Positions 2 through 16,522 of a stretch of DNA of 64,000 nucleotides are shown here, piece by piece. The DNA is taken from contig CAVTGG010000014.1 of the NCBI GenBank assembly GCA_963734155.1, positions 309,841 to 373,840 of the forward strand, read 5' to 3'. This stretch comes from an uncultured Acidobacteriota bacterium (GTDB lineage: Bacteria; Acidobacteriota; Thermoanaerobaculia; Gp7-AA8). The stretch's first letter is position 1, and each line of letters starts with the position of its first letter. The notes beneath the pieces are model-generated. The model did not search any database, had not been told where the DNA came from, and saw only the letters and a list, made by a program, of their open reading frames with translations. Position numbers and translations under genes: made by a program.

Positions 2-1984
2 TTGTTTCAATACGACGAGTGGCGCGTGTCGAGCCGCTCGACGGAAATGCAGACGACGATCGGGCGCAAGCTGATTCGCCGCGACCGCACGCGCGAGCAG
101 AGCTACCGCAACCGCCTCGGCGCATCGCAGGCGATCGCCGTGTGGGACGGCTGGCGCGTGCGTCTTCCGCAACTCGAAGAGCTCGCGCGCACGCTCGGCT
201 CGGAAGGATGGACGATCGAGATCGACTCCGCGCCGCTGCGCGTCACGGACGACTTCGACGTCGAGATCACGAGCGGCATCGACTGGTTCGATCTCGATGC
301 GCACGCGAGCTTCGGCGACGCGCGCCTCGGTCTTCCGGAGTTGCTCGCGGCGTCGGAAGCGAAGCGCACGCTGCTGCGGTTGTCCGACGGCTCCTACGGC
401 ATCGTTCCTTCTTCCTGGACGGACACGCTCGCGCCGCTCGTCGACCTCGGCAAACGCGAAAACGATCGCATCCGCTTCCGACCGACGCAGGCGCTGCTGA
501 TCGACGCGCTGCTGCAATCGCGCTTGAAAAAGAGCGACAACGCCTTCGCCGATCTGCGCCAGCGGCTCGCCGCCGCGGCACCGGTCCCGCGCAACGAGCC
601 GCGGACGCTGCAAGCGACGTTGCGTCCCTATCAACGCGCCGGCCTGGGATGGCTGCACTTTCTCCGCTCGATCAACACCGGCGGTTGTCTCGCCGACGAC
701 ATGGGCCTCGGCAAGACCGTGCAGACGCTCGCGTTGCTCGAAGAGCTGCGCGCGGGCGGCACCACGCGGCCGTCGCTCGTCGTCGCCCCGCGCTCGCTGC
801 TGTTCAACTGGGCCGCGGAGGCGCAGCGATTCGCGCCGAAGCTGCGCGTGCTGCAGCATCACGGCACCGAGCGCGCGAAGAACGAATTCGCCGGCTACGA
901 CCTCGTGCTCACCACGTACGCAACGATGCGGCTCGACGTCGCGCGTCTCGCGGAGACGGAGTTCGAATACGTCATCCTCGACGAAGCGCAGGCGATCAAG
1001 AACACGACGAGTCAGGTCGCGAAGGCGAGCCGCCTCTTGAACGCAAAACATCGGCTCGCACTGAGCGGCACGCCGATCGAGAATCACCTCGGCGAGCTTT
1101 GGAGCCTGTTCGAGTTTCTCAATCCCGGTCTCCTCGGCTCGTCGCGCGCGTTCGGCCGCACGTTCGCATCGAAGACCACGCCGCCCGAGCGCCGCGAAGC
1201 GCTCGCGCGCGCGCTGCGTCCGCTGATCCTGCGCCGCACGAAGGAACAGGTCGCGCCCGAGCTGCCGGAGCGCATCGAGCAGACGATCTACTGCGAGCTG
1301 GATGGAAAACAGCGAAAGCAGTACGACGAGCTGCGCGAGCATTACCGGCAGTCGCTGCTCACGAAGGTTCAGAAGGGCGGCATCGAGAAAGCGCGCATGC
1401 AGATCCTCGAAGCGCTGCTGCGTTTGCGCCAGGCCGCCTGCCATCCCGCGCTCATCGATCCGCGCACGGACGCGGAAAGCGCGAAGATGGATCTGCTCAT
1501 GGACGAGCTGCGCGAAGTGCTCGACTCCGGCCACCGCGCGCTCGTCTTCTCGCAATTCACGTCGCTGCTCGCGCTCGTCCGCCGCGCGCTCGACGCCGAA
1601 GGCGCCGGCTATCTCTATCTCGACGGCAAAACGCGCGACCGCCAATCGCTCGTCAATGCGTTCCAGCACGACAACGGTCCGTCGCTCTTTCTCATCAGCC
1701 TCAAAGCCGGCGGCCTCGGATTGAATCTCACGAACGCCGACTACGTCTTCCTGCTCGACCCGTGGTGGAACCCGGCCGTCGAAGCGCAGGCCATCGACCG
1801 CGCCCACCGCATCGGCCGCCAGAAACCGGTCGTCGCCTACCGCCTCATCGCCCGCGACACCGTCGAAGAAAAAATCGTCGAGCTGCAAGCGCGAAAACGC
1901 GAGCTGGCCGAGTCGATTTTCTCGGAGGACAACAGCGTGCTGCGGAAGATCGAAGTGGAGGATCTGGAGCTGCTGCTGTCGTAG
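2..1984 (+). CDS. SNF2/RapA-like superfamily-2 helicase, 5'-truncated at window edge
   Basis: The ORF runs from the window edge. It has an SNF2_N-type ATPase core (LADDMGLGKT Walker A, DEAQAIKN DEAH-like box) followed by helicase-C motifs (LFLISLKAGGLGLNLT, QAIDRAHRIGQ). Confidence 0.85.
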   Translation: MFQYDEWRVSSRSTEMQTTIGRKLIRRDRTREQSYRNRLGASQAIAVWDGWRVRLPQLEELARTLGSEGWTIEIDSAPLRVTDDFDVEITSGIDWFDLDAHASFGDARLGLPELLAASEAKRTLLRLSDGSYGIVPSSWTDTLAPLVDLGKRENDRIRFRPTQALLIDALLQSRLKKSDNAFADLRQRLAAAAPVPRNEPRTLQATLRPYQRAGLGWLHFLRSINTGGCLADDMGLGKTVQTLALLEELRAGGTTRPSLVVAPRSLLFNWAAEAQRFAPKLRVLQHHGTERAKNEFAGYDLVLTTYATMRLDVARLAETEFEYVILDEAQAIKNTTSQVAKASRLLNAKHRLALSGTPIENHLGELWSLFEFLNPGLLGSSRAFGRTFASKTTPPERREALARALRPLILRRTKEQVAPELPERIEQTIYCELDGKQRKQYDELREHYRQSLLTKVQKGGIEKARMQILEALLRLRQAACHPALIDPRTDAESAKMDLLMDELREVLDSGHRALVFSQFTSLLALVRRALDAEGAGYLYLDGKTRDRQSLVNAFQHDNGPSLFLISLKAGGLGLNLTNADYVFLLDPWWNPAVEAQAIDRAHRIGRQKPVVAYRLIARDTVEEKIVELQARKRELAESIFSEDNSVLRKIEVEDLELLLS

Positions 1985-1987
1985 CGC

Positions 1988-2716
1988 TCACGGCGCGACG
2001 CCGACCGGCGAGTGATCGACTAGATAGCCGAAGATCTGCACGTTCTCCGCGCGCGCGTCGAGCTCGATCGTTTCGTAGCGCTCGTTCGTGCTCGTCAGGC
2101 GGATGGTGTGGCCGCTGATCTCGAATCGCTTGAGAAAGAGAGCATCGTCGCGGCGAAGCAGAACGGTGCGTCCGTTCGCGGTGCGAGGGCTGCGCGTCGG
2201 TTTGAGATACGTGAGCTCGCCATTGCGCAGCGGATCGATGCCGCCATCCATCGAATCGCCGACGACCTTGGCGATGATCCGCGCGCCGCGATTCCACGCC
2301 GTGCGCGGGATGAGCACGCGCTCCGTCTCCAGTTCCGCGATCAACTCCGCATTCGGATCAGCCGCAGCACGAACGGGCGACGCCGATCGATCGCGCGATG
2401 GCTTCACCAGCGAAACCACCGGCGCCATCGCCGCCGGCGGCAGCCAGTTGCTCAGAATCTCCTGCGCCCGCAACACCGCGGCGTGCGCGGTGCGCACCTG
2501 ATCGACTTCGACGACGATGTCGCCGTCGGTGAGGAGCAGCGCCGGATCGGCTCCGATGGCGCGCGCGATGGCGATGAACTCCAGCACCGTCGGAACCTGC
2601 TTCCGGTTCAGGATCTTGCTCAGCTTCGTCGCCGGCATTCCCGCGTCCGTGGCCACGCGAAGCCGTTTCAAACCGCTGGCCTGGACCGCGGCGATGAGCC
2701 GCTCGATGGCATCCAT
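1988..2716 (-). CDS. XRE-type HTH plus S24 peptidase (phage CI/LexA-like autoproteolytic repressor)
   Basis: The N-terminal HTH reads ATKLSKILNRKQVPTVLEFIAIARAIG. The C-terminal S24 domain carries the catalytic Ser in VVGDSM with Lys downstream (LFLKRF). It is divergent from the peptide operon. Confidence 0.8.
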   Translation of the reverse strand: MDAIERLIAAVQASGLKRLRVATDAGMPATKLSKILNRKQVPTVLEFIAIARAIGADPALLLTDGDIVVEVDQVRTAHAAVLRAQEILSNWLPPAAMAPVVSLVKPSRDRSASPVRAAADPNAELIAELETERVLIPRTAWNRGARIIAKVVGDSMDGGIDPLRNGELTYLKPTRSPRTANGRTVLLRRDDALFLKRFEISGHTIRLTSTNERYETIELDARAENVQIFGYLVDHSPVGVAP

Positions 2717-2789: not shown

Positions 2790-2865
2790 CCGAATTGCGA
2801 ATATCGCGAGAAGACTCCAGTAAGTTACTTATTAAGCAACAAATGTTACTTGTCAAGCAACTGCA
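2790..2865. promoter_or_regulatory. AT-rich divergent promoter/operator region with two 17-bp direct repeats GTTACTT(A/G)T(T/C)AAGCAAC
   Basis: This is the only AT-rich patch between the repressor gene and the peptide operon. Repeats lie at 2824-2840 and 2845-2861. On the minus strand, TTGACA, a 17-nt spacer and TAATAA resemble a promoter reading toward the repressor. Confidence 0.45.
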
Positions 2866-2987
2866 CCCGCCGCACTTCACCGCCGCCGACGAGCCGCAAG
2901 CGTCTGAATTGCCGTGGCGCTGCTGTTGCATCCGCCTAACGGGACTTCCCGCATTCCACACGTTGCGCGACGAAAGGATGACGACAC

Positions 2988-3197
2988 ATGGCCGAGAACG
3001 AAACTCCCGATCGCCTGATTCACGAGATCCGCGAGATCAACGAGGCGCAGGACCGCTACGCCGTCAGCATGTCCGACACCGGCAGCGGCGGCGGCGCCGG
3101 CGACTCGAACGACAACACCAGCAGCGGCGGCAGCAGCGACACCACCGATACCAGCGACGGCAACGATTCGAACGACTCCTCCGACTCGGGCAACTGA
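2988..3197 (+). CDS. small acidic Ser/Asp/Asn/Gly/Thr-rich peptide (69 aa), candidate precursor or substrate peptide
   Basis: An AAGGA SD lies 9 nt upstream of the ATG. The N-terminal 30 aa look helical and leader-like (MAENETPDRLIHEIREINEAQDRYAVSMSD). The C-terminal 39 aa are low-complexity (TGSGGGAGDSNDNTSSGGSSDTTDTSDGNDSNDSSDSGN). The stop lies 5 nt before the next ATG. Confidence 0.5.
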   Translation: MAENETPDRLIHEIREINEAQDRYAVSMSDTGSGGGAGDSNDNTSSGGSSDTTDTSDGNDSNDSSDSGN

Positions 3198-3202
3198 CGG
3201 CG

Positions 3203-4387
3203 ATGGCGCAGGAAGACATCCTGCAGTTGGTCGGCAGCGAGGATTTCCTTCGGGAAACCTGGGGCCGGACCATGCAGCATTTCCAGGGAACGCCCGGCGC
3301 GTTCCATCAGGTGCTGCCGTGGGATGCGCTCAATGAGATCCTGCGCGCGCACCGGCTGGAACCTCCGCGCCTGCGGCTCGTCCGCCACGCGCAGTACGCG
3401 GCGGCGGAGAGCTACATCCGCGTCCGGCCGAACCGCCGCGGGCAGGCCATTCCGGAGATCATTCCGGAGCGCTTCACGGCACTGCTGCGCGACGGCTACA
3501 CGCTGATCGTCGATGCCATCGACGAAATGGCGCCGGCGATCCGGGAGATCGCGGTGGCGCTCGAGCGGTTGTTTCACGAGACCGTGCAGGCCAACCTTTA
3601 CACAGCCTGGCGTGATCTGCAGGGCTTCGACGTCCACTGGGACGACCACGACGTTTTGATCCTGCAGGTCTACGGCCGCAAACACTGGCGCGTGTACCGG
3701 GGCGGGCGGGAACATCCGCTGCACCGCGACATCGCGCCGAACACCGAGCCGCCGAAAGAGCTCCATTGGGAAGGAGAGCTGCGCGACGGCGACGTGCTGT
3801 ATCTCCCGCGCGGCTGGTGGCACGAGGCGGCAGGGTGCGGCGAGCCGACGCTGCATCTCACCTTCGGCATTCCGAAACGGAACGGCATCAACCTGCTGCA
3901 ATGGCTCACGGACGAACTGCGCGCGGCGACGGAGTTTCGCGCCGATCTGCCGCGCTTCGCGGACGCGGCAGAGCGCGCGCGGCACATGCAGGCGCTGCGC
4001 GCGCAGCTGCTTGCGCGCTGGGATGACACACTGCTCGAGCGGTATCTCGCTTCGGAAGACCAGCGCGCGCGCCCGCGCACCTGGGTGAATCTCCCGCTTG
4101 CGGCGCAGGAGGAGGCCGTTCCTCCGCTCGATGCAGTCGTCTCGCTCGCGATCGCGCGGCCGCCCGAGATTGCGAAAGGCGATGCCATGATCACCATCCG
4201 CGCGCTCGGCCGCGAATGGGATCTGGCCGCCGGAACAGAGCCCGCGTTTCGCCGCCTGATCGACGGCCCGACGACGGTCGCGGAGCTCTCGCGCACGCTG
4301 GAAGGCACGGCGACGGTCGGCCAGACGCAGACGTTCGTGGCCGACCTCGTCCGGCGCGGGCTGCTGACCGTTCACCATGCCGGCTGA
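3203..4387 (+). CDS. cupin-4/JmjC-family Fe(II)/2-oxoglutarate oxygenase (RoxA/YcfD-like) with C-terminal winged-helix region
   Basis: An HxD motif sits in VHWDDHD. LRDGDVLYLPRGWWHEA provides the second His, matching the YcfD-type cupin core. The length (394 aa) and C-terminal helical domain resemble ribosomal-oxygenase family proteins. Confidence 0.75.
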   Translation: MAQEDILQLVGSEDFLRETWGRTMQHFQGTPGAFHQVLPWDALNEILRAHRLEPPRLRLVRHAQYAAAESYIRVRPNRRGQAIPEIIPERFTALLRDGYTLIVDAIDEMAPAIREIAVALERLFHETVQANLYTAWRDLQGFDVHWDDHDVLILQVYGRKHWRVYRGGREHPLHRDIAPNTEPPKELHWEGELRDGDVLYLPRGWWHEAAGCGEPTLHLTFGIPKRNGINLLQWLTDELRAATEFRADLPRFADAAERARHMQALRAQLLARWDDTLLERYLASEDQRARPRTWVNLPLAAQEEAVPPLDAVVSLAIARPPEIAKGDAMITIRALGREWDLAAGTEPAFRRLIDGPTTVAELSRTLEGTATVGQTQTFVADLVRRGLLTVHHAG

Positions 4388-5288
4388 CGTCGCGCGGCCG
4401 TCGCGCGCGCTCTGTTCCACGGCATCGCGCGCCGCGGAGGAAGACCTCATCGGCACCGCCGAGCCGGTACATCACTGGATCGCCATCGAGCTGCGCTCGG
4501 GCTGGGGCCGCAATCCCATCGATCACGCCAATCTGCCGCCGGCGGTACGCGCGCGACTCGTCGAGCTCGTCGCTCGCGTGCCGCGGACGCGCGTCGTGTT
4601 CATCCGGCGCGACGGAACCCCTCCACCCGGCGTACAGGTGTATGTCGCGCGCACGCGCGAGTCGGGATCGGTTCTGCGGGCAGCGCGCGTTTCTGCAATC
4701 GACGACGTGGTCTCGATTCCGTTCGAACGTTTCTTCGACGCGGATGAGCCAATCGGCGACGATGCGCAACCGATTGCGCTCGTTTGCACGCATGGTCAAC
4801 ACGACTCCTGCTGCGGGTTGCGCGGCTATCCGACGTTCGAGGCGCTGAGCCGCCGATACGAGCACGTCTGGCAGTGCTCGCATGTCGGCGGCGACCGCTT
4901 CGCAGCGAACGTCGTGGTCCTGCCGGCCGGGATTTACTACGCTCGCGTCGAACCCGGCGATGCCGAAGCGATCGACGCAGCGCTGCGGAACGGCCGCATC
5001 GTTCTTCGCCACTACCGCGGGCGCAGCTGCTACGACCGCGCGGCACAAGTGATCGAAACGGTCGTTCGCCGCGCCCACCGTCTGATGCACCTCGACGACG
5101 TGCGCGTGCTCGACGTTCAGTCAACACGGCCGCAGGTCTGGATCGGCAGCGCGAGCGATTCCTCGGGAACCGTGCATACGATCGAAGTCATCGAACGGCG
5201 GACCTCCGCAGTCGGATTTCTCACCTGTTCGGCGAAGAAGCAGGAGCCGTGGCGCGAGTATGAAGTGCTGCGCCACGAGAGGTCCTAG
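4377..5288 (+). CDS. sucrase/ferredoxin-like (Apd1-type thioredoxin-fold, putative [2Fe-2S]) protein
   Basis: Family motifs are VCTHGQHDSCCG and CSHVGGDRFAANVVVLP. The ATG overlaps the JmjC stop by 11 nt (ATGCCGGCTGA), which suggests translational coupling. Confidence 0.7.
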   Translation: MPADVARPSRALCSTASRAAEEDLIGTAEPVHHWIAIELRSGWGRNPIDHANLPPAVRARLVELVARVPRTRVVFIRRDGTPPPGVQVYVARTRESGSVLRAARVSAIDDVVSIPFERFFDADEPIGDDAQPIALVCTHGQHDSCCGLRGYPTFEALSRRYEHVWQCSHVGGDRFAANVVVLPAGIYYARVEPGDAEAIDAALRNGRIVLRHYRGRSCYDRAAQVIETVVRRAHRLMHLDDVRVLDVQSTRPQVWIGSASDSSGTVHTIEVIERRTSAVGFLTCSAKKQEPWREYEVLRHERS

Positions 5289-5300
5289 CGCACGAGCTTC

Positions 5301-5660
5301 TCAAACAAATGCGCCAGCGCCGCCGCCAGATCGGCGTTCACTCCCGAATGCACCGGCGAGGTTTGAATGATCGTGCTGCGCGGAGCGACGAGCCAGTGAA
5401 AGCGCTCGCTCTGCGACAAGCAGGCCGATCGGTCCGGCGTCGGGGCCGCCGGCACAGATGCGCGGGATCGAATCGAGATAGCTTTGCACGACATCGCGAT
5501 CGAGCGACGGGGCGAGTGCGCTGAGGCGCGCTGCGTCGAGTGCGATGCGGGCGTCGAGGAAACGCGCCGTGCGGCTGAAGAGAATCACGCCCGCGTTGAC
5601 GAACTCACCGCGCTCCACGCGGGGGACGATGCGCACGACGGCGTAGTCAAACGCGTGCAC
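5301..5660 (-). CDS. DUF3037 domain protein (partner of HipA-like kinase)
   Basis: The conserved DUF3037 N-terminus is FDYAVVRIVPRVERGEFVNAGVILF. The start is a probable GTG at 5660, 14 nt inside the kinase gene end. An upstream ATG at 5732 is an alternative. Confidence 0.55.
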   Translation of the reverse strand: MHAFDYAVVRIVPRVERGEFVNAGVILFSRTARFLDARIALDAARLSALAPSLDRDVVQSYLDSIPRICAGGPDAGPIGLLVAERALSLARRSAQHDHSNLAGAFGSERRSGGGAGAFV

Positions 5661-6405
5661 GAATCGCCTCCTCCAGCCATGCGCGCGGCGACGCGAGGCG
5701 TCGCACGAGATAGTCGGCGTATGGCATCGCATCCTCTTCGAGCCACGAATCCGGAATCAGTTGCACGACTCGCTCGATCGCGTCGCGCGTGAGCAGCGCG
5801 CTCAGCTCTTCATCGACTTCGCGCAGCATCGTCGCCCAACGCAACAGCACATGATCGCGGATCTGCGGAAACGCGCTCGTCGCGCGCGACGGATCGCCGT
5901 TCCAGGAGTGATGCACGATCAGCGTCGCGCCGTGGTCGATCAGCCAGAGATCGCGATGCCAGATGAGGAGATTCGTGTTCTTCGCCGTGCGGTCGACATT
6001 CGTCACCAGCGCGTCGAGCCAGACGATGGACGAGGCGAGCCGCGGCTGGCCGGCGATCGCGGCGGCGCGCTCGACGAGAGGATCGAACGTGATCGATCCC
6101 GGGAGATAGTCGAGGGCGAGATTCAGTCCGACGCTCTTCCGCAGCAGATCCTGGATCTCGGGATCGGGCTCCGTCTTCGCCATCCGCTCATCGACCATGG
6201 CGAAGACGATCTCCGGCACGCGCAGTCCGAGGAGCCGGGCCAACTCGCCCGAGACCAGCTCGGCGATCAGCGCCTTCACTCCCTGCCCCGCGCCGCGGAA
6301 CTTGAGGACGTACGTGCCGTCGTCATCGCCTTCGACGATGGCCGGCAGCGAGCCTCCTTCGCGAAGCGGCGTCACATATTCGGTGCAAGTGATGGTGCGA
6401 AGCAT
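5647..6405 (-). CDS. HipA-like Ser/Thr kinase (HipA_C catalytic core only)
   Basis: The catalytic-loop equivalent is LVTNVDRTAKNTN (HipA has NxDDHxKN). A DFG-like LIDHGATL and a Gly-rich N-terminus are present. The start was chosen at the internal ATG 6405, so the long ORF extension upstream is treated as non-coding. Confidence 0.6.
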   Translation of the reverse strand: MLRTITCTEYVTPLREGGSLPAIVEGDDDGTYVLKFRGAGQGVKALIAELVSGELARLLGLRVPEIVFAMVDERMAKTEPDPEIQDLLRKSVGLNLALDYLPGSITFDPLVERAAAIAGQPRLASSIVWLDALVTNVDRTAKNTNLLIWHRDLWLIDHGATLIVHHSWNGDPSRATSAFPQIRDHVLLRWATMLREVDEELSALLTRDAIERVVQLIPDSWLEEDAMPYADYLVRRLASPRAWLEEAIRARV

Positions 6406-6888
6406 GCGAGGAGGGGATTCTCTCGTAAAATGGCGACGATGCGAACGCGCGCGCTCCTCACCTTTCTCGTGCTTCTGATGGTCGCCCTCGGCGCATCTGC
6501 GCAAAGCGACAGTGAATTCGGCCGCGCTTCCAGCGGCGCGATCAGCGCGATCACGAAAGGACCGAGCCAGTTCTCCGGCACGCTCTCGCTGTCGCTGGGC
6601 AGTGGTACCGGCTACGGCGCTTCCTTCGGAGGCGAAGCGATCAAGGATCGGCTCTGGGTGTTCGCCGCGGCGGCTGTTTTGCCTCAGATCCGGTTCTCGG
6701 AAACGAAGCTCGAAGATGCGAAAGCGACAGCGCTGCCGGTCGATTGGGCGAACGTGACCGCGTCGTTCAGTCAGCTGCGTTCGAACGACGTGTTGTTGCC
6801 GATCGTCGTTCCTCTCGCTGCGCTCGACGACGATGCTCTCCGATCGCATGATGATGAACATCAGCTTTTCGCGATCGGGGCGGTAGTG

Positions 6889-6964
6889 TGGAGCCGATGA
6901 CCGGACTCGAACCGGTGACCTGCTGATTACGAATCAGCTGCTCTACCAACTGAGCTACATCGGC
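6889..6964 (-). tRNA. tRNA-Thr (anticodon CGT)
   Basis: A manual cloverleaf fits: acceptor GCCGATG/CATCGGC, D-arm GCTCAGTTGGTAGAGC, anticodon stem GCTGA/TCAGC with loop TTCGTAA, T-arm ACCGGTTCGAGTCCGGT, discriminator T plus an encoded CCA. Confidence 0.85.
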
Positions 6965-7082
6965 GCTTAGGACAGGCAAGCCTGCCTGTCCGTCATCGAC
7001 GTCCCGGCAGGAACCACATGAACAGCGCGGGCGCGCATTCTATTCACCCCGGGCGGGGGTGTCGAGTAGGATGTGATCCAAC

Positions 7083-7159
7083 GCGCCCTTAGCTCAGCTG
7101 GATAGAGCATCAGACTTCGGATCTGAGGGTCGGGGGTTCGAATCCCTCAGGGCGCGCCA
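7083..7159 (+). tRNA. tRNA-Arg (anticodon TCG)
   Basis: The acceptor is GCGCCCT/AGGGCGC. The anticodon stem is TCAGA/TCTGA with loop CTTCGGA. The T-loop is TTCGAAT. An encoded CCA is present. Confidence 0.85.
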
Positions 7160-7168
7160 ACCTCCACT

Positions 7169-8605
7169 TTGTCGAAATCCGAGCGCATTCTTTTCTGGTC
7201 GTTGGCGGCAGCCTCGCTCGTGCTGCGCGCGCTCTCGTTTTTTCGCTATCGCTTCGACTCCGACGAGCAGCAGCATCTGCATGTCGCGTGGGCGTGGACG
7301 GACGGGCTCGTGCAGTACCGCGACGTCTTCGACAATCACCTGCCGCTCTTTCATCTGCTGACCGCGCCGCTGGTGGCGCTGTTCGGCGAGCGCGCGGACA
7401 TCCTCCTCTGGATGCGCCTGCCGATGCTCGCGTTGTTCGTGGTCGTGCTTTGGGCGACGTACAAGATTTCCGAGAGCGCGTGGGCGGTGGTGCTGTTGTC
7501 GCTCTTTCCGCCGTTCTTTCTCAAGTCGCTCGAGTTCCGCAACGACAACTTGTGGACGGCGCTCTGGATGCTCGCGATTCTCGGCGTGATGCGGCAATGG
7601 CGGCCGTTCGTGATCGGCCTTCTTCTCGGCGGCGCGTTCGCGGCGTCGATCAAGACCGTCGTGCTGCTGGTCGCGTTCGTGATCGCGTTCCCGAAACAGA
7701 AATGGCTGCAGATCCTCGCCGGCTTCCTCGTCATCCCGGCCGCGCTCGCGATCTACTTCGCGAGCGCCGGCGCGTTGGATGAGCTGCTGTACTGCAACTT
7801 CACCTTCAACGCGCACTTTGCGATGACGCGCAAGGGCCTTTGGGTTCTGCGCGTGCTCTTCCCGATTCTGCTCGCCTGCGTCCTCTGGCTCGCCAAACGT
7901 TTTCGCCCGCATGCGTTCGCGATCCTGATCGCGGTCTACGCGATCACGCTCCTGCCCCTCGGCGTTCCGATCTCGCCCCGCGATTTCCTCCCGCTCATGC
8001 CGCTGCTGGCGATCCTGTTCGCCGCGAATGCCACGCACCTGCAACGAGTGCTCGTTGCCGGCGTCTGCATCCTTGCGCTGTTCAAGTACGCGGACGGGTT
8101 CAAGGATCGAACGGAGTGGCACGTCACGATGCTGCATCAGGCGCTGCGACTCTCGCATCCCGGCGAGCTGCTGATGGACATCAAGGGCGAGACGATCTTT
8201 CGCCGGCGGCCGTTCTACTACGTCTTCGAGAACCTCACCCGCGCGCAGATGGATCGCGGGATCATCCGCGACACCGTGGCCGCGGACGTGATCCGCACGC
8301 GCACACACGTCGCGCAGGCGGACGGGCCGATGTGGCCGCCGCGGGCGCGCGCGTTTCTCAGCGAAAACTTTCTCGACATGGGACGGTTGCGTGCCTCGGG
8401 GCAATGGTTGAAGCCAGATGGCTCGTTCACCATCGCGGTTCCGGGCGAATACGTGATCGTGAGCGAAAACGGGGCAATCGGTCCTGCACGCGAGTACGCG
8501 GCAGGCACGTATCGCATCGCAATCAGAAAGAAGCTCGCGGTGATGTGGGCGCCGGCGTTCCGGCGCGGACACTCACCGTTCCATCTGCGCGATCGCGAGT
8601 TCTAA
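7169..8605 (+). CDS. GT-C fold integral-membrane glycosyltransferase (ArnT/PMT-like)
   Basis: About 11 predicted TM helices. The N-terminal loop with conserved acidic residues (FRYRFDSDEQQHLHVAWAW) is typical of the ArnT / dolichyl-phosphate-mannose transferase family. Confidence 0.55.
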   Translation: MSKSERILFWSLAAASLVLRALSFFRYRFDSDEQQHLHVAWAWTDGLVQYRDVFDNHLPLFHLLTAPLVALFGERADILLWMRLPMLALFVVVLWATYKISESAWAVVLLSLFPPFFLKSLEFRNDNLWTALWMLAILGVMRQWRPFVIGLLLGGAFAASIKTVVLLVAFVIAFPKQKWLQILAGFLVIPAALAIYFASAGALDELLYCNFTFNAHFAMTRKGLWVLRVLFPILLACVLWLAKRFRPHAFAILIAVYAITLLPLGVPISPRDFLPLMPLLAILFAANATHLQRVLVAGVCILALFKYADGFKDRTEWHVTMLHQALRLSHPGELLMDIKGETIFRRRPFYYVFENLTRAQMDRGIIRDTVAADVIRTRTHVAQADGPMWPPRARAFLSENFLDMGRLRASGQWLKPDGSFTIAVPGEYVIVSENGAIGPAREYAAGTYRIAIRKKLAVMWAPAFRRGHSPFHLRDREF

Positions 8606-8609
8606 CGAC

Positions 8610-8712
8610 GTGTCATTCCGAGCCGCGAAGACGGCGAGGAATCCCCGGCGCAAGTACGGTCCTCGTGCATCGGCGGGGGATTCCTCGCCGTCTTCGCGGC
8701 TCGGAATGACAC
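8610..8712. terminator. 37-bp perfect inverted repeat between convergent genes (bidirectional terminator-like hairpin)
   Basis: GTGTCATTCCGAGCCGCGAAGACGGCGAGGAATCCCC (8610-8646) has its exact reverse complement at 8676-8712, with a 29-nt loop. There is no long T-run. Confidence 0.55.
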
Positions 8713-8717
8713 AACGA

Positions 8718-9446
<729 letters not shown>

Positions 9447-9457
9447 TCCGATTCCTT

Positions 9458-10123
9458 TCAGGCGAAAACGTACGGGCCGAGGACGTGCACTACGACGTCG
9501 CCCGCGAAGTGGCCGAGGATTGCGGCTTCGATGCCCCACTTCACGTACAGCAGGCCGAGGACGATCGCGATCAGGCCGTTCACGATCATCACCGCGGTGA
9601 TCACGACCGGTCCCGCGGCGAGCCAGCGATTCAGATGTGCCGCGCCGAAGAGCAGCGCAGCGATGATGATGGCGATCCAGATCCCTTTGTGGGTGCCGCT
9701 GCCCTCAGCGGCACCGCGACCGCTGAGGGCAGCGGTCGCCACATTGATGAGCCACACGACGAACGAGACGATGAAGAGACGAAAGATGATTTCTTCGAGC
9801 GTGGCCGAGTCGAAGGCGATGATCAGCCACTTCCAGACGGGGATCGTCGCTTCTTTGATGATGCGGCTTTGCAGGCCGCCGAGCGGCAACAGCGCGAGCA
9901 CGACTGCTCCGGAGGCGGCGCCGATCAGCAGCGACAGCGCGGCGCGTTTCGGCGAAGGGATCGACGATCCGAGGCCGTGCTTCGCGCCGAACCAAAGGCC
10001 GGCCCAGATCAGCAGGACGATGACGATCTCGACCAAGAGCAACGCGAGAAAGTTCGGCGGATAGGGGAACGAGAGGAACGTGGCGATCACGCCGAGGACG
10101 TAGATCCACCACGCGCGGTTCAT
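9458..10123 (-). CDS. CPBP family (CAAX/Abi-type) intramembrane metalloprotease
   Basis: The gene shows the EEIIFRLFI (EExxxR), FGAAHL and HFAGD motifs across 6-7 TM helices. Its stop overlaps the fabD stop region, giving an ATGA overlap with fabD at 10120-10123. Confidence 0.75.
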   Translation of the reverse strand: MNRAWWIYVLGVIATFLSFPYPPNFLALLLVEIVIVLLIWAGLWFGAKHGLGSSIPSPKRAALSLLIGAASGAVVLALLPLGGLQSRIIKEATIPVWKWLIIAFDSATLEEIIFRLFIVSFVVWLINVATAALSGRGAAEGSGTHKGIWIAIIIAALLFGAAHLNRWLAAGPVVITAVMIVNGLIAIVLGLLYVKWGIEAAILGHFAGDVVVHVLGPYVFA

Positions 10124-11052
10124 GGCCGTGCCAGGAACGCCTCGATCGACGGCACGTCCGAGACGTTGATCAGCTCCACGTTCGGGTCAATCCGTTTGAT
10201 CATGCCGGTGAGCGCGTTCTTCGGTCCGACTTCCACGAACCGCTTCACGCCCATCGAGATCATCTTCTGCACCGACTCCACCCAACGCACGGGCGAGGCG
10301 ACCTGGCGCAGCAGCGCGTTGCGCACCGCCGTCGCGGTGCCGATCGGCGATGCGTCGACGTTCGAGACGAGCGAGACCCACAGATCATGAAAAGCCGCTT
10401 CGTCGAGCACCGGCTTCAATCGTTCTTCGGCGGGCTTCATCAGCTCGCAATGGAACGGCGCGGAGACCGGCAGCGGCAGCACGCGGCGCACGCCGTGTTT
10501 CTTCGCGATCTCGACCGCGCGGTCGATGCCGCTCTTCGTGCCGGCGATGACGACTTGCTCGGGCGAGTTGATGTTCGCGACGGACAACACGTCGCCCTGC
10601 GCCGCTTCGTCGCAGATCGCGCGCGCCTGCTCGAGTGTTCCCAGGACCGCGGCCATGCCGCCGGTGCCGACCGGCACCGCTTCCTGCATGAACGTTCCGC
10701 GCAGATGCACGATCTTCGCGGCTTCGGCCGGCTTCAATCCGCCGACGCTGACGATCGCGCTGTACTCGCCGAGGGAATGGCCGGCGACGAGATCGCGCCG
10801 CGCGGCGTTGTGCTCTTCGAGCACCGCGTGGATCGCCGACGACACGGCGAGAATTGCCGGCTGCGTGTTCTCCGTCAGTTTCAGCTGGTCCTCGGGGCCT
10901 TCGAAGCAGAGTTGCGAGATCGAGTAGCCGAGTGCGGCATCGATGTCGTCGAACACGCGGCGCGCGGCGGGATACGTTTCGGCGACGTCCTTTCCCATGC
11001 CGGCGTACTGGCTGCCCTGGCCGGGAAAGACGAAGGCGGTGTTGTGCTCCAT
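10120..11052 (-). CDS. fabD: malonyl-CoA:ACP transacylase FabD
   Basis: The N-terminus is FVFPGQGSQYAGMGKD and the active-site motif is GHSLGEYSA. Confidence 0.9.
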   Translation of the reverse strand: MEHNTAFVFPGQGSQYAGMGKDVAETYPAARRVFDDIDAALGYSISQLCFEGPEDQLKLTENTQPAILAVSSAIHAVLEEHNAARRDLVAGHSLGEYSAIVSVGGLKPAEAAKIVHLRGTFMQEAVPVGTGGMAAVLGTLEQARAICDEAAQGDVLSVANINSPEQVVIAGTKSGIDRAVEIAKKHGVRRVLPLPVSAPFHCELMKPAEERLKPVLDEAAFHDLWVSLVSNVDASPIGTATAVRNALLRQVASPVRWVESVQKMISMGVKRFVEVGPKNALTGMIKRIDPNVELINVSDVPSIEAFLARP

Positions 11053-11076
11053 CGCGCGGGATCATAATCGAAGGCG

Positions 11077-11763
11077 ATGAGAGTGGAACTGGTCGACGCG
11101 ATCTCGAGAGTCAAGTGGGCGGTGTATCCGTTTCTCCTGCGATTCGCGCCGCGGCTGGCGATCGCCGCCCACGAGCCGAAAGCGACCGGCGCGTGGTGGC
11201 GCGCGATCGAGGAAGGGATGATCGTCGTCGACGGCGGCGCGAACCTCGGCGGATACTCGATGCTCGCATCGAAACGCGCCGGCGCGGCGGGGCGCATCTA
11301 CGCGTTCGAGCCGGAGCCGGACAACTTCGCCAAGCTCGTGCGGCGCGTTCGCGCGATGCACAACGTCGTGCCGGTGCAGAAAGCGCTCGGCAGGCAATCC
11401 GGCGAAGCGCAGCTGCACCTCGACCGATTCCACGCGCGCCACTCGCTGACGCGGGACGGTTCCTACACGATCACGGTACCGGTGACGACGCTCGACGATT
11501 TCGTGCGCGATGAAAAGCTGGAAGGCGTCGACGTCATCAAGCTCGACATCGAAGGCGCGGAGCTCGAGGCGATCGCCGGGATGACCGCGGTTCTCACCGC
11601 CGCACGCCGACCTGTCGTTCTATGCGAGCTGCATCCGCCGCTAACTCCGGAACAGTTCCGCGACGCGCTCGCCGTTCACGGATATCGCTGCGAGGTGCTC
11701 GACGCGCAATTCACCGGAGCGGTGCATGATGCACCCGTGCACATCCTGGCCACTCCCGCATGA
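11077..11763 (+). CDS. FkbM-family SAM-dependent methyltransferase
   Basis: It has the Methyltransf_21-type pattern VVDGGANLGGYSMLAS ... IYAFEPEPDNF ... IKLDIEGAE. Confidence 0.7.
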   Translation: MRVELVDAISRVKWAVYPFLLRFAPRLAIAAHEPKATGAWWRAIEEGMIVVDGGANLGGYSMLASKRAGAAGRIYAFEPEPDNFAKLVRRVRAMHNVVPVQKALGRQSGEAQLHLDRFHARHSLTRDGSYTITVPVTTLDDFVRDEKLEGVDVIKLDIEGAELEAIAGMTAVLTAARRPVVLCELHPPLTPEQFRDALAVHGYRCEVLDAQFTGAVHDAPVHILATPA

Positions 11764-12353
11764 ATGACGATCTCGCGCTTCTGATCCGCCAGCTGCGCGG
11801 CGCGTATTCGGGCGAGCTCGCGGCCGGCTACGCGTATCGCGGCCACTGGCACAGCGTCCGCGACGCCGCGGAGCGCGAGCGGATTCAGGTCATCGAACAG
11901 GAGGAGTGGCATCACCGCGAGCTCGTCGGCGGACTGCTCGCGCAGCTCGGCGCGAAGCCGAGCCGCATCCGCGAAGCGATCTTCTTCGTCATCGGAAAAA
12001 CGATCGCCGCGATCTGCCACATCGGCGGGCGCTTCATCCCGATGTACGGGGCCGGAAAGCTCGAGCGCAGCAACATCGTGGAGTACGAAGACGCCGCAAC
12101 GTACGCATCGCGTTGCGGGCACGAAGAGATGATCGAGTGCCTCTTGGCGATGGCGGAGACGGAGTGGGAGCACGAGCGCTACTTCCGCGAGTGCATCGAA
12201 GGGCATCCGCTGCTGCGGGTGTTCAAGTTGTGGGAGCCGCCGCCAGAACCGCGCTGTCGTGCTCGCGTCGGTGCAGATCCCCAATCTTCTCGCGAATCTT
12301 CGCGTCGATCTGATTCGCGGCAAAGTCGCGGGCGACGCGGATCGCGTTCTTGA
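11760..12353 (+). CDS. ferritin-like diiron-carboxylate protein (rubrerythrin/DUF-type)
   Basis: Two ExxH pairs are present (EEWHHRE, ETEWEHERYFRE). The ATG overlaps the upstream stop (ATGA). The 3' 130 nt overlap plsX antisense and may be an artefactual extension. Confidence 0.5.
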   Translation: MNDDLALLIRQLRGAYSGELAAGYAYRGHWHSVRDAAERERIQVIEQEEWHHRELVGGLLAQLGAKPSRIREAIFFVIGKTIAAICHIGGRFIPMYGAGKLERSNIVEYEDAATYASRCGHEEMIECLLAMAETEWEHERYFRECIEGHPLLRVFKLWEPPPEPRCRARVGADPQSSRESSRRSDSRQSRGRRGSRS

Positions 12354-13260
12354 TCGCTTTCGCGTTCGAGCGGCCGTGGCAGATGATGCAGCCGCCGTTC
12401 ACGCCGAGGAGCGGCGCACCGCCGTACTCGTCATAGTCCATCCGCTTCTTGATGTCGTCGAACGCGCCGCGCAGGATGAACGCCCCGAGCTTGCGTCCCG
12501 GCGTCCGCGTGACCTCGGCGCGCAGCCATTTGCCGACCAGTTCTCCGAGGGCCTCCCCTGCCTTCAGCACGACGTTGCCGATGAACCCGTCGCAGACGAT
12601 CACATCGGCGTTGCCGTTGAACACGTCGCGGCCTTCGGCGTTGCCCATGAAATTCAGTCCCGTCTCTTTCAGGACGCGGAACGTTTCTTTCGTCAGCTCG
12701 TTGCCCTTGCCTTCTTCTTCGCCGATCGAAAGCAATCCGACGCGCGGCGACTCGACTCCGAGAATCATCTGCGCGTAGAAGTGGCCCATGACCGCGAACT
12801 CGCGCAGGTTCGAGACTTTCGAATCGACGTTCGCGCCGACGTCGAGGATGAGCACGTGCCCATTCTCGGTGGCGCTCGGCAGGATGGTGGCGAGGGCCGG
12901 GCGGCTCACGCCTTCGATCGTGCCGAGGACCTTGTACGCAGACGTCATCGCCGCGCCGGTGTGACCCGCCGACACCATCACGTTAGCGCGCCCCTCGGCG
13001 ACGAGGTTCGCGGCCACCCGCACGGACGAGTTGCGTTTGCGGCGCAGCGGCGCGAGCGCGTTGTCGGTCATGTCCACGACTTCGCGCGCATCGACGATCT
13101 CGATGCGCGGAACCGCGGCACCCATTTTTTCGCGTAGGACTTCTTCCCGGCCGACGAGCAGGATCTCGACCGCCGGGTATTCCGCGGCGGCGAGCATCGC
13201 CCCTTTGACGATTTCGTCCGGAGCGTTGTCGCCGCCCATCGCATCAAGCGCGATGCGCAT
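12223..13260 (-). CDS. plsX: phosphate acyltransferase PlsX
   Basis: It starts MRIALDAMGGDNAP and has conserved PlsX-family blocks throughout. Confidence 0.9.
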   Translation of the reverse strand: MRIALDAMGGDNAPDEIVKGAMLAAAEYPAVEILLVGREEVLREKMGAAVPRIEIVDAREVVDMTDNALAPLRRKRNSSVRVAANLVAEGRANVMVSAGHTGAAMTSAYKVLGTIEGVSRPALATILPSATENGHVLILDVGANVDSKVSNLREFAVMGHFYAQMILGVESPRVGLLSIGEEEGKGNELTKETFRVLKETGLNFMGNAEGRDVFNGNADVIVCDGFIGNVVLKAGEALGELVGKWLRAEVTRTPGRKLGAFILRGAFDDIKKRMDYDEYGGAPLLGVNGGCIICHGRSNAKAIKNAIRVARDFAANQIDAKIREKIGDLHRREHDSAVLAAAPTT

Positions 13261-13272
13261 AGTTCACCGCGA

Positions 13273-13458
13273 CTAGAGAACGTCCTTCGTGGCGATGACT
13301 TCGCGGCCCTTGTAGTAGCCGCACTTCGGGCAGACGCGGTGCGGCAGCTTGGCCTCGTGGCACTGCGGGCAGGTGGAGATCGACTTCTGCTCGAGAAAGT
13401 CGTGCGCGCGGCGCGTGCGTGTTCTCGCCTTCGAATGGCGTCGTTTCGGATTTGGCAT
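13273..13458 (-). CDS. rpmF: 50S ribosomal protein L32
   Basis: It starts [20 protein letters not shown] and has [20 protein letters not shown] zinc-ribbon cysteines. An AAGGAG SD is present. The start was set at the internal ATG 13458. Confidence 0.85.
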
Positions 13459-13469
13459 CGTGAAGCTCC

Positions 13470-14024
13470 TTAAACGTTTTTCTTCTTCGTCAACTCGTCG
13501 CGGATGCCTTTCAGCGCATCCCACCGCTCGTCCACGATCGACCCCTCACACGAGCACGACTCGCGGGAGCGGTTCGCGCCGCAGTGCGGACACAAACCGA
13601 GACAGCTCTCATCGCACAACGGCTTCATCGGAATCGAGAGCTGAATCTGCTCCAGCGCGAGGTCTCGCAGAGGGATCGTTCGTTCCGAGTAAAACTCGAC
13701 ATCGAGCTCTTCCTCATCGGTGATCTCGATCTCTTCTTCGGTGATCTCGGGACGAGGGCGAAATCTTACGTGAAACGTGGACGTGTTCGCAAACGGATAC
13801 GGCTCGAGGCAGCGCGAACAATTCAGGTCGGTCGTGAAGGTGGAGGTGCCGTCGGCGAGGTACTCGCCGTCCGCATCTCCTTTGGATACTGTCGCTTCGA
13901 TGCGAGCGCTGCCCGAGTTCGCCACTTCGACGCGCGCGATTTCCTCGGCGGACACGTCGTACGTGCCGCGGTAGGTTTGCGGGCCGTGCTCGTCGATGAC
14001 GTCGAAGTCGATCAGGTCGTTCAT
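13470..14024 (-). CDS. yceD: YceD/DUF177 family protein (23S rRNA accumulation protein)
   Basis: The DUF177 fold has a C-terminal Cys cluster ([13 protein letters not shown] ... CSC). It sits in the canonical position upstream of rpmF-plsX. Confidence 0.8.
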
Positions 14025-14059
14025 TTAGGCCGCTCCCGTAACCTGACGAGGCCGTAAAT

Positions 14060-15295
14060 CTATTTCGATGCAATGCGCACGCGCAATTCCTCAAAGCCGC
14101 CGGAGACCGAGTCCGCCGCCTCGATCGATCGGGCCTGGCGCAGGGCTTCGGTCCAGCGGCGCAGGTCGCGCGAGGCGCGGTGGACGCGCGACGCGACGAG
14201 GCGTAACCCGCGGCTGTCGCTGAGTTTGTCGAGAATCGGCGGCATCCGCTGGGCGTCGATGCGCAGCGACCAGACCGTCGCCGGCCACGCCGCGGGCTCG
14301 AACGTATCCTTTATATATAGCGGCATGCTCTGGCGGTCGAACGAGACCAGGACCTCGGCGCCGGTGTCGCGCGTCTCGCCGACGAGCGAGATCGCGCTCT
14401 GGACGTCGCCGATCGCGCGGCGCGATTGCTCGTTGGCCGGCAGCGAGATCACACCCTTCGGACGCGGGAGGAACGTGCCGGCGTCGATGTCGTAGAGCGC
14501 GACCGAGCCGCCGTTGCCGAGGAGCGTGGAGAGATCGGTGCCGAGGAGGCGTTGCACGTCGCCGAGGATGCGGGGCGGGCGGGCGAAGGTGGCGGAGAGG
14601 AGCGCGTTTTTCGGATGGCGGGCGGGAGTAGCGCGCGCCTCTGGCGCGCCTCCGTCCTCAGGCGCGCCGGGATCCGCGCCGGCGCGCGAGACGAGATCGA
14701 TCGCAGCCGGCGTCACGCGCACCGAGGTCACGGACGGGCGCGCGATCGGCGGAAACATCCCGCGGGCGCGGTCGCGCTGCACGGCGAAGAAATCGCCTTC
14801 GGGCAAACCGTTCGCGAGCGCGAGGATGTCGTCGAGAGAACGCGCGTCGAGCGGAGCGCCGGGCTCGCCGATCACGAACACGCTGCCGTCCCACACGCCG
14901 TTCGCGTTCGTCGAGGACATCAGCCAGAGACGGACGAGAAACGCGCGGAACGGATCGAGACGGATGGCGTAGCTGATTTTCTTGCCGCGACGCCAGGCCA
15001 CGGCGTCGGCGCCGCCGAGCATCCACGGTTGGGGGACGTCGTGTTCGGACGTCCAGCGCTCGACGGCATCGCGCGTGACGGGATTCGCGAGCAGCCGTTT
15101 GTTCAGCAGCGCGGCGGTGGGGATGAGCGCGAACGAGTCGGCGGATGCGGGCACGCGCGCGATGAGCGCGCGCTGCGAGGCGCTGAGCGGAAAGCGAACC
15201 GGCGCCGCGGCGCTCGGCGTGGTGAGCGCGAGGTAGGCCGCCATCGCGCCAATGAGCACGGCCACGATGGCGAGGATGATGAGGAACGTACGCAT
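14060..15295 (-). CDS. hypothetical membrane-anchored protein
   Basis: There is an N-terminal signal-anchor (MRTFLIILAIVAVLIGAMAAYLAL) and no recognisable catalytic motif. The start was chosen at the internal ATG. Confidence 0.4.
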   Translation of the reverse strand: MRTFLIILAIVAVLIGAMAAYLALTTPSAAAPVRFPLSASQRALIARVPASADSFALIPTAALLNKRLLANPVTRDAVERWTSEHDVPQPWMLGGADAVAWRRGKKISYAIRLDPFRAFLVRLWLMSSTNANGVWDGSVFVIGEPGAPLDARSLDDILALANGLPEGDFFAVQRDRARGMFPPIARPSVTSVRVTPAAIDLVSRAGADPGAPEDGGAPEARATPARHPKNALLSATFARPPRILGDVQRLLGTDLSTLLGNGGSVALYDIDAGTFLPRPKGVISLPANEQSRRAIGDVQSAISLVGETRDTGAEVLVSFDRQSMPLYIKDTFEPAAWPATVWSLRIDAQRMPPILDKLSDSRGLRLVASRVHRASRDLRRWTEALRQARSIEAADSVSGGFEELRVRIASK

Positions 15296-15319
15296 GGGTT
15301 GCACTACTATCGCGCGCGC

Positions 15320-16522
15320 ATGGCGCTGGTCTCCGCGATTCGGATCGTTTTTCACACTCTACGCCATGCGCTCACGGATCGTGTCCATCGCGTGTGGCGC
15401 GGCGCGGCGCATCGCGAGCGGAAGTTGCGCATCGGCGTCGACATCCGCCCGTTTTACGAGCCGCTGACCGGCGTCGGCTGGTACCTCTACTTCGTCCTCC
15501 ACGAGCTCGCGAAATACAAGCACGTCGAGCTCTATCTCTTCGGCGATGCGCGCGTCACGGACCTCGGCCCGACGCTGCACGTCGACATCCCGTCGAACGC
15601 GAAGCTCTGCTCGTTCGATCTGCGCGGCATCCCGTGGCGCAACGCGATGCGGCCGATGACCGCGGCTGGTTACGTCGCCTGGCTCGCGCTCTCCGACTGC
15701 GACGTGTACTTCGGCGCGAACTATTTCCTGCCGCGGCTGCACGGCGCGATCGCGAAGCGGCGCGTGATCACCGTGCACGATCTGACGTACAAGCGCTTCC
15801 CGGAGCTGCTGCAGAAGGAGACGCTCGAGAATCTCGAGCGCGAGATGGCGCGCGAGGTGGCGATCGCGGACGCGATCATCTGCGTGTCGGAATCGACGCG
15901 GCGCGATCTGCTCGAGTTCTATCCGATCGCTCCCACGCGCGCCGTGGCGATTCACTCCGGCCTCGCCCCCGCGCCCGCACCCGAGCCGCTCGAAGGTCTC
16001 CCCTCCCGCTACATCCTCTTCGTCTCCACGATCGAGCCGCGCAAGGACCTCGGCACGCTGATCTCCGCGTACGAGCGCCTGAACGATCCGACCGTGTCGC
16101 TCGTCGTCGTCGGAAAAGTCGGCTGGAAATCGAAAGCGTTGCTTCCGCGGCTGCGCGGCCGCGGCATCGTGCACCTCGACTACCTGCCGCCGTCGCAGCT
16201 GGCGACGGTGTACGAGCGCGCCGCGGCATTCGTGTTTCCGTCGATCTACGAAGGATTCGGATTCCCGCTGCTCGAGGCCATGCGCCACGGCATCCCGTCG
16301 ATCGCCGCGCGCTCGTCCTCGCTGCCGGAGATCGGCGGCGACGCGGCTCTGTACTTTCCCGCCGGGCGATGTCGACGCGCTCGAATCGCAGCTGCGGCGC
16401 GTGCTCACCGATGATGCTCTGCGCATCGATTTGTCCACGCGTGGAAAAGCGCGCGCGGCGGAGTTCCGATGGGAGATCGCAGGCGCGAAGACGCTGGAGG
16501 TGTTACAAAGAGCGGCGGAATG
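15320..16522 (+). CDS. GT4-family glycosyltransferase (apparent +1 frameshift near 16361-16367)
   Basis: The GT-B C-terminal motif is FVFPSIYEGFGFPLLEAMRHGIPSIAA. The reading frame breaks after LYFPAG (ccgggcg) and resumes in another frame to a TGA at 16521-16523. Confidence 0.55.

Follow-up and report, generated by a model that had tools for sequence, protein, structure and literature searches.

Kinase/DUF3037 gene pairs are known from two validated systems. In the Retron-Sda1 operon, the genes for a HipA-like kinase and a DUF3037 protein give protection from phage Bas51 that does not depend on the retron; deletion of the kinase gene leads to loss of defence, while deletion of the DUF3037 gene is toxic (PMC12548924). 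E. coli DS-6, which was drawn from DefensePredictor (PMC13092281, which cites Brenes & Laub 2025) and renamed HipAD, consists of the kinase DS-6A and of DS-6B, a protein with a DUF3037 and a DUF1829 domain (PMC13092281). The D139A substitution in DS-6A abolishes defence (PMC13092281, supplementary tables), and AlphaFold 3 (AF3) predicted an A-B complex (interface predicted template modelling score, ipTM, 0.76-0.79) as well as contacts of DS-6B with DNA (PMC13092281). The target of the HipAD/DS-6 kinase and the mode of restraint by DUF3037 are not given in PMC12548924 and PMC13092281. Related short Hip kinases (HipG/I/J/M) lack N-subdomain-1 and have non-HipB partners (Gerdes et al. 2021, PMC8262856). 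In general, kinase-based abortive-infection and toxin/antitoxin (TA) systems are only now being characterised. Here we analysed a kinase/DUF3037 gene pair on the minus strand of a 64,000-nt stretch of DNA (the window) from an uncultured Acidobacteriota bacterium of the Thermoanaerobaculia (contig CAVTGG010000014.1, positions 309,841 to 373,840).

The window holds one copy of the pair, the parts of which are as follows.

5647-6405, minus strand: HipA_2-family protein kinase gene (open reading frame (ORF), Pfam, PADLOC, AlphaFold 2 (AF2) model, invariant residues)
5285-5660, minus strand: 376-nt gene of the DUF3037 partner, with one base too many (two hidden Markov model (HMM) matches in two frames, tblastn, DNA alignment)
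5301-5660, minus strand: 119-aa reading of the partner gene, publicly annotated as P0121, with its last 38 residues out of frame
5417-5421, minus strand: frameshift site, one extra base compared with the related loci L001, L003 and L004 (DNA alignment, column 273)
5647-5660, minus strand: 14-nt overlap of the kinase and DUF3037 genes (sequence)

As read from the sequence, this is a self-contained two-gene operon that encodes a minimal kinase-like enzyme and a translationally coupled DUF3037 protein, which are inherited together and co-diverge. The pairing appears to be obligate, since both genes were present in 63/63 loci, no third gene was kept and the divergence of the two proteins was correlated (r=0.87). 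The pair is probably a kinase toxin/neutraliser defence module of the HipA_2/DUF3037 family, an interpretation that we favour because the genes are homologous to DS-6/HipAD and Sda1, with identical gene order and coupling. By this homology, the kinase would be a growth-arresting effector that depends on the catalytic Asp D138, and the DUF3037 protein would bind and neutralise it. If phage infection, stress or the like disturbed the complex, the kinase would be set free, would phosphorylate an essential host target and would thereby bring about abortive infection. A candidate kinase-based toxin/antitoxin-like module had already been proposed in a first-pass annotation of the window, and the experiments on the homologous pairs (PMC12548924, PMC13092281) support that idea. 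The idea is not new, as the pair corresponds to PADLOC PDC-M66: the family has already been catalogued under this name and validated as DS-6/HipAD and Sda1. Within this family, the locus belongs to a short-partner subfamily and is not regarded as an orthologue of HipAD.

The kinase ORF runs from an ATG at 6405 to a stop codon at 5647-5649 and its product has 252 aa. The first-pass annotation had identified the correct gene and strand, but it had counted the stop codon and thus arrived at 253 aa. A longer upstream ORF reaching 6861 was rejected as unsupported; more than 120 homologues share the MLRTIT start. The kinase ATG is not preceded by a Shine-Dalgarno sequence but by CCTCC, and nothing resembling a promoter was detected immediately in front of it. 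The sole Pfam match of the protein is HipA_2 (PF20613, E=5e-17, residues 11-227), and the PADLOC model PDC-M66A matches it with E=1.7e-22, from position 9 to position 251 of the 270 in the profile. The catalytic-loop and DFG-like motifs that had been noticed before are indeed present (TNVDRTAKNTNLL and LIDHGATL). G17-G18-S19 form a Gly-rich loop close to the N-terminus, the catalytic loop reads N136-V-D138-R-T-A-K-N143, the Mg-binding motif is D157-H-G, and K35 and E49 are also in place. The residues K35, E49, D138, N143 and D157-H158 were invariant in 24 kinase sequences across phyla and in 11 sequences spanning both subfamilies. A multiple alignment of these 11 sequences showed that the full set invariant in both subfamilies comprises G17, K35, E49, D131, N136, D138, R139, N143, N145, D157 and H158. 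In this alignment the window D138 occupies the column of D139 of DS-6A, so that the catalytic Asp is retained upon proper alignment. The catalytic set of the predicted kinase is complete.

The kinases of the window and of its closest relative, L001, share an in-frame deletion of ~9-13 residues in a variable loop before the C-terminal helices, at residues about 226-228. L005 and most relatives carry DFPGVAAHRGAY at this position, and the segment is likewise missing in some Actinoplanes and Thermoanaerobaculia sequences.

The AF2 model of the kinase (predicted local distance difference test score, pLDDT, 83.7; predicted template modelling score, pTM, 0.85) places K35 at the end of a strand and E49 on helix 43-58, with the strand-loop-strand around G17-G18-S19 as the block of lowest confidence. 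A Foldseek comparison of this model with the PDB gave a probability of 1.0 to CtkA, Fam20 and HipA. The match to H. pylori CtkA (3akk) had E=4.8e-5 and a template modelling (TM) score of 0.54, that to Shewanella HipA (4pu5) had E=2e-3 and a TM score of 0.44, and Fam20 kinases scored equally well. The predicted structure is a minimal protein-kinase-like fold that is close to those of HipA and CtkA. Searches of the PDB with phmmer and profile HMMs yielded nothing relevant for either protein, and no HipA was found by sequence; the link to HipA thus comes only from Pfam naming and fold similarity. NCBIfam has no meaningful family for the kinase or the DUF3037 protein.

The HipA-likeness reported in the first-pass annotation hence holds for the neighbourhood of the fold, but the Pfam family is HipA_2 rather than classical HipA, and CtkA and Fam20 are equally close. 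The lack of HipA N-terminal domains, which had also been reported, is borne out by the Gly-rich loop being located already at residues 17-19 and by the absence of any Pfam match to HipA_C or a HipA N-terminal domain, even at E<=1. These data also bear on whether the pair is a classical HipBA type II TA system, which would have an aminoacyl-tRNA synthetase as the substrate of the kinase and would rely on a DNA-binding antitoxin for repression of the operon. The relation of the kinase fold to HipA and CtkA would agree with this, as would the description of short Hip kinases with non-HipB partners (PMC8262856). The protein is however 252 aa long compared with about 440 aa for HipA, the same Pfam searches found neither HipA_C nor the N-terminal domain, and the family profile HMM retrieved no HipA from the PDB. 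Moreover, the operon contains no helix-turn-helix (HTH) protein, only a divergent small ORF and tRNA-Thr lie upstream, and the partner gene is located downstream instead of upstream. The similarity of DUF3037 to HipS was below significance, and Foldseek gave no match. We therefore regard a classical HipBA system as highly improbable and rejected it, given that HipA_C and HipB are lacking and that the partner is downstream.

The DUF3037 reading starts with a GTG at 5660, contains FDYAVVRIVPRVERGEFVNAGVILF and matches Pfam DUF3037 (PF11236) with E=4.6e-26. Its start overlaps the kinase stop by exactly the 14 nt noted previously (GTGCACGCGTTTGA), which implies translational coupling. Overlaps of 4-32 nt were found in the relatives L001, L003, L004, L068 and L069, in E. 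coli DS-6 and in an Aeromonas locus (L067). In contrast to the overlap, the far end of the partner gene was not what it had seemed. P0121 is identical to the 119-aa reading of the window, whereas the relatives have 124-127 aa and are ~93% identical to the window partner over the first 81 residues only (68% of P0121). The partner of every relative ends with ...LLSQSERFHWLVAPRSTIIQTSPVHSGV..LFEKLVR, and three-frame translation revealed the conserved C-terminus, SERFHWLVAPRSTIIQTSPVH..., in another frame of the window. Specifically, codons 1-81 are in the frame of the GTG at 5660, while the conserved C-terminal 43 codons are +1-shifted and end with the TAG at 5285-5287. In agreement with this, the family HMM matched two window ORFs, one that ends at 5304 (profile positions 4-88) and one that ends at 5288 (positions 82-127), and a tblastn match with the L001 partner protein was divided between frames -3 and -1. 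DNA alignment at about 5418-5421 showed one extra base, with 'ggcctGcttgtcg' in the window versus 'ggcct-cctgtcg' in the relative. The first-pass annotation was therefore correct about the DUF3037 domain, but its ORF ending at 5301 is the frameshifted reading and the stop at this position is an artefact.

The DUF3037 gene was intact in all other loci examined. Since the shifted 43 codons contain no stop and are about 95% identical to those of the relatives, the +1 frameshift appears to be either an extremely recent mutation or a sequencing or assembly error in this metagenome-assembled genome (MAG). As written, the window would encode an intact kinase and a partner that is cut off after residue 81. 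Programmed frameshifting was rejected as an explanation because all relatives have an intact gene in a single frame. In two long-contig Actinomycetota MAGs it is the kinase gene that is frame-split (L059:5995-6778 and L064:5995-6776), which means that frameshifts, whether real or assembly-derived, recur for this pair in MAG data.

If the frameshift is real, the locus might be a decaying remnant without a current function, in which the partner is dead and the kinase is silent, attenuated or being lost. A comparison of 15 genes with L001 is compatible with this: apart from a poorly conserved small ORF at 6430-6900, the DUF3037 gene was the only frame-split gene, and as the sole clearly conserved one it argues against a generally error-prone assembly. 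In addition, the extra base does not lie within any long homopolymer, and the cassette is located in a slot with evident gene turnover. The open and almost unchanged state of the shifted codons argues in the opposite direction, as do the retention of all invariant residues by the kinase and the occurrence of such artefacts in MAG data, as seen for L059 and L064. Taken together, we consider a decaying remnant improbable.

The predicted structure of the partner was studied on the intact relative P0122, for which a confident DUF3037 model was obtained (pLDDT 94.7). Foldseek found no significant neighbour of this predicted fold in the PDB. The PDC-M66B model has 281 positions, of which P0122 covers 1-128 and the window reading 1-65. 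The related partners have 124-135 aa, and all 63 partner ORFs stop just past the DUF3037 domain. This domain is nevertheless the one found in the validated partners, since the DUF3037 profile aligned end to end with residues 5-129 of the 275 residues of DS-6B (hhalign, 85.8%, E=5e-6). What the window-type partners lack is the C-terminal extension of the validated partners, which is DUF1829-like and brings their total length to about 275-282 aa. Since this missing half is the one predicted to bind DNA, autoregulation through DNA binding by the short partner seems unlikely.

A scan of species-representative genomes gave 62 loci. The identity was 67-92% in Thermoanaerobaculia and other Acidobacteriota, 59-63% in Pyrinomonadaceae and Blastocatellia, 57-58% in Sericytochromatia, 56-60% in Bacteroidota and 43-55% in Actinomycetota. 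In Acidobacteriota, Actinomycetota, Bacteroidota and Sericytochromatia alike, the partner was always short (~125 aa). The pair is conserved in related genomes, so that of the two objections foreseen in the first-pass annotation, a lost catalytic Asp and genes that are not kept together, neither applies: an adjacent, same-strand gene for a short DUF3037 protein followed the kinase gene in all 63 related loci that have downstream DNA, and L068-L070 and L073 showed the same pairing. When the flanking ORFs of 64 loci were clustered all against all, no third conserved gene emerged. The pairwise identities of kinases and partners, from which the above correlation was calculated, also showed that the partner diverges slightly faster. 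The subfamily is large, with more than 8000 word-sharing homologues, the top 120 clusters of which are 70-92% identical, and with 2699 clusters (at the 50% identity level) at E<=1e-3.

Seven metagenomic proteins of 378-429 aa (P0267, P0311, P0316, P0321, P0339, P0349 and P0351) have HipA_2 and DUF3037 in one chain. We did not rely on them as 'Rosetta stone' fusions, since they mostly have partial domain matches and out-of-frame gene overlap; they may well be artefacts, caused by a frameshift or by read-through in the overlapping genes, and not genuine fusions.

Several findings weigh against a toxin/neutraliser defence module. The window kinase shares no more than 28-29% identity with the validated kinases, and its partner lacks half of the validated partner. 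The short-partner subfamily had no matches in 50,697 phage records, and it matched 11 of 72,556 plasmid records, which were mostly megaplasmids or mislabelled chromosomes. PADLOC and Pfam searches of 105 flanking ORFs from 27 diverse loci revealed no recurrent defence family or context near the pairs, and only isolated defence-type neighbours at a few loci (such as MkoA/C, a type I S subunit, PDC-S02 and a NERD-UvrD helicase). Furthermore, the kinases group for the most part by taxonomy in a neighbour-joining tree, and the 57-60% identity between phyla is unusually high for fast-evolving defence genes. Lastly, a real frameshift would mean that the host tolerates an intact kinase beside a cut-off partner, which speaks against strong toxicity there.

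Much of this would also be expected if the short-partner pairs were not a TA or defence system but a lineage-maintained signalling module for the control of growth rate, dormancy or stress. In that case DUF3037 would be a regulator, an adaptor or a substrate, and the E. coli-type defence system would be a mobile offshoot with an added DNA-binding extension. The grouping of the kinases by phylum and class, the level of identity among Acidobacteriota, Bacteroidota and Sericytochromatia, the absence from phage and near-absence from plasmid records, and the partner without a DNA-binding half all point this way. The same holds for the more than 120 clusters of at least 70% identity in soil metagenomes, the mostly housekeeping neighbours, and an actinobacterial clade of about 11 loci in which upstream synteny is kept. 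The divergence of the pair also resembles that of its flanks, with nucleotide identities of 88% versus 91-92% to L001 and 84% versus 81% to L005. These observations have to be set against the homology to two validated defence or toxin systems with identical gene order and coupling, the defence-type neighbours at the few loci mentioned above, and the cassette-like behaviour of the pair, which has sharp borders and is missing from the tRNA-Thr slot in 12 related loci. On balance, we judge a signalling module, the strongest of the alternatives, to be possible but rather unlikely.

A bolder idea builds on the same distribution. In soil Acidobacteriota, Actinomycetota, Bacteroidota and Sericytochromatia, the short-partner pairs could make up a clade that is deep, coherent in taxonomy, unusually well conserved and separate from the enterobacterial defence type. 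This clade could be the ancestral form, maintained by its hosts for growth or dormancy control rather than for phage defence, and DUF3037 could perhaps be a novel lid or pseudosubstrate that acts on the kinase in trans. If true, DUF3037 would act like HipS by replacing the missing HipA N-terminal domain, and DNA binding would not be needed. This idea is speculative, and we think it unlikely.

The toxin/neutraliser module that we favour would behave as a cassette, because the homology to relatives has sharp borders and because the pair is either present or absent in a slot at tRNA-Thr. The features surrounding the pair are listed below.

2-1981, plus strand: SNF2/ResIII helicase gene
2000-2716, minus strand: HTH_31 and Peptidase_S24 (LexA/CI-like) gene
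2863-5284: remainder of the slot, with a JmjC_2 gene and a Suc_Fer-like gene (blastn collinearity breaks, Pfam)
6430-6900, plus strand: small ORF with a signal-peptide-like N-terminus (MATMRTRALLTFLVLLMVALGASAQ...), no Pfam match
6889-6964, minus strand: tRNA-Thr(CGU), conserved border of the variable slot (ARAGORN and Rfam)
7037-7065, minus strand: sigma-70-like promoter match TCGACA-17-TAGAAT, 10 of 12, upstream of tRNA-Thr
7083-7159, plus strand: tRNA-Arg(UCG) (ARAGORN and Rfam)
7169-8605, plus strand: gene for a 478-aa multi-pass membrane protein, no Pfam match
8718-14100: fatty-acid/phospholipid synthesis cluster (fabG, Rce1-like gene, fabD, plsX, rpmF, yceD-like), collinear with L001

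The two neighbouring tRNA genes had been recognised correctly in the first-pass annotation. The tRNA-Thr gene is co-oriented with the kinase operon, which starts 484 nt downstream of it. The small ORF at 6430-6900 is divergent from the kinase gene, with its start about 25 nt from the kinase ATG, and overlaps the tRNA-Thr gene by 12 nt. A 148-aa homologue was called in L001, and the 3' part of the ORF has several indels compared with L001. We regard it as a putative gene.

L001 is about 90% identical to the window at the nucleotide level and collinear with positions 1-2862 and 5289-16405, the latter including the pair, the small ORF, the tRNAs, the 478-aa gene and fabG-fabD-plsX-rpmF. Between these segments, the JmjC_2 and Suc_Fer-like genes of the window (2863-5288) are replaced in L001 by NMO, Hen1 and Pnkp (L001:11114-16226). 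The corresponding slot of L071 (L071:1990-5699) contains two alpha/beta hydrolases and lacks the kinase pair (tblastx, Pfam), and the S24-HTH orthologue of L071 lies 3.9 kb beyond tRNA-Thr. The S24-HTH and SNF2 helicase genes of the window are 97% identical to their L001 counterparts. An HTH-S24 gene near the pair is common to the closest relatives of the window only and not general across loci, and the presence of such a gene directly upstream of the Aeromonas pair appears to be a coincidental linkage.

When metagenomes were scanned with the 478-aa protein as the seed, 24 loci were obtained, most of which kept the backbone of fabG, the 478-aa gene (56-80% identical protein), tRNA-Arg and tRNA-Thr. 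Beyond tRNA-Thr, the pair was found only in L073 of these loci, and it was absent within at least 5.4 kb in 12 others. In more distant relatives, DNA similarity ends sharply at the borders of the pair (blastn). The cassette thus sits in a variable cargo slot that adjoins tRNA-Thr and extends up to the HTH-Peptidase_S24/SNF2 block, as the slot cargo differs among relatives and the pair is missing from the 12 metagenome loci. The collinearity with L001 had suggested that the pair belongs to the conserved backbone, a view that was dropped once the metagenome loci had made clear that the slot on the far side of tRNA-Thr is variable. The fabG-plsX side of the locus is core chromosome. For the description of the region as 'island-like' this means that the variable cargo at a tRNA site stands, but other hallmarks are missing: the GC content is flat across the region without any anomaly, no integrase or recombinase was found among the slot genes (JmjC_2, Suc_Fer-like, pair and small ORF), and a search for direct repeats of the tRNA 3' end gave no repeat family with a copy inside the tRNA genes.

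The locus mainly extends a known family and does not overturn current understanding. Three aspects go beyond PMC12548924 and PMC13092281: a partner that consists of the bare domain, the high degree of conservation in soil phyla, and a DUF3037 domain without a solved structural relative. A kinase with a bare DUF3037 domain is the widespread and strongly conserved form in major soil phyla, and the minimal pair defines the core of the interaction for structural and biochemical studies. The bare-domain partner suggests that the C-terminal extension is an add-on. Moreover, the frameshifted partner beside an intact kinase would be a natural allele that could reveal how toxic the kinase is.

Of the described systems, HipBA, HipBST and the short Hip kinases resemble the window pair in having a kinase-like core, a Gly-rich loop near the N-terminus, no N-subdomain-1 and a small non-HipB partner. 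The window kinase differs from all of these in that it belongs to HipA_2 rather than HipA_C and has no detectable sequence similarity to solved Hip kinases, its partner is DUF3037, and HipB is absent. Retron-Sda1 is alike as a stand-alone two-gene kinase/DUF3037 system, the behaviour of which we would extend to the window pair. Its partner differs in having a C-terminus that resembles a retron DNA-binding protein, and it is located beside a reverse transcriptase (RT) gene and a non-coding RNA (ncRNA). In the window there is no RT, and Rfam detected just the two tRNAs and no retron ncRNA.

The pair of Aeromonas caviae KAM479 (L067) likewise consists of a 260-aa kinase and an overlapping DUF3037 protein of the same Pfam families. 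It differs from the window pair by a long partner of 282 aa and by its position directly downstream of an HTH-Peptidase_S24 repressor gene, and its kinase and partner are 28% and 24% identical, respectively, to those of the window. A search at the DNA level with the Aeromonas pair did not retrieve the E. coli locus, and the sequences of DS-6A (WP_000389051.1) and DS-6B (WP_000210934.1) were taken from the supplementary table of PMC13092281. Over 162 residues, the window kinase and DS-6A share 29% identity (E=1e-12). DS-6/HipAD and the window pair have in common a HipA_2-type kinase of ~250 aa and an equal gene order, in which the DUF3037 gene comes after the kinase gene and overlaps it, as well as an invariant catalytic Asp (D138/D139) and Lys, Glu, Asn and Asp-His set. 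They differ in that DS-6B has 275 aa compared with about 125 aa here, where the DUF1829-like half with its AF3-predicted DNA contact is missing, and in that DS-6 has an enterobacterial prophage or mobile context, whereas the host here is a soil member of the Thermoanaerobaculia. The partner gene of the window is moreover frameshifted. Finally, both window proteins match the two models of PDC-M66 (PADLOC-DB v2.0.0) and no other system convincingly, although the window-type partner reaches at most position 128 of the 281 positions of the B model. Since the C-terminal extension marks the tested members and not the Pfam-defined pair, we file the locus in the broad HipA_2-kinase/DUF3037 family, next to DS-6/HipAD and Sda1.

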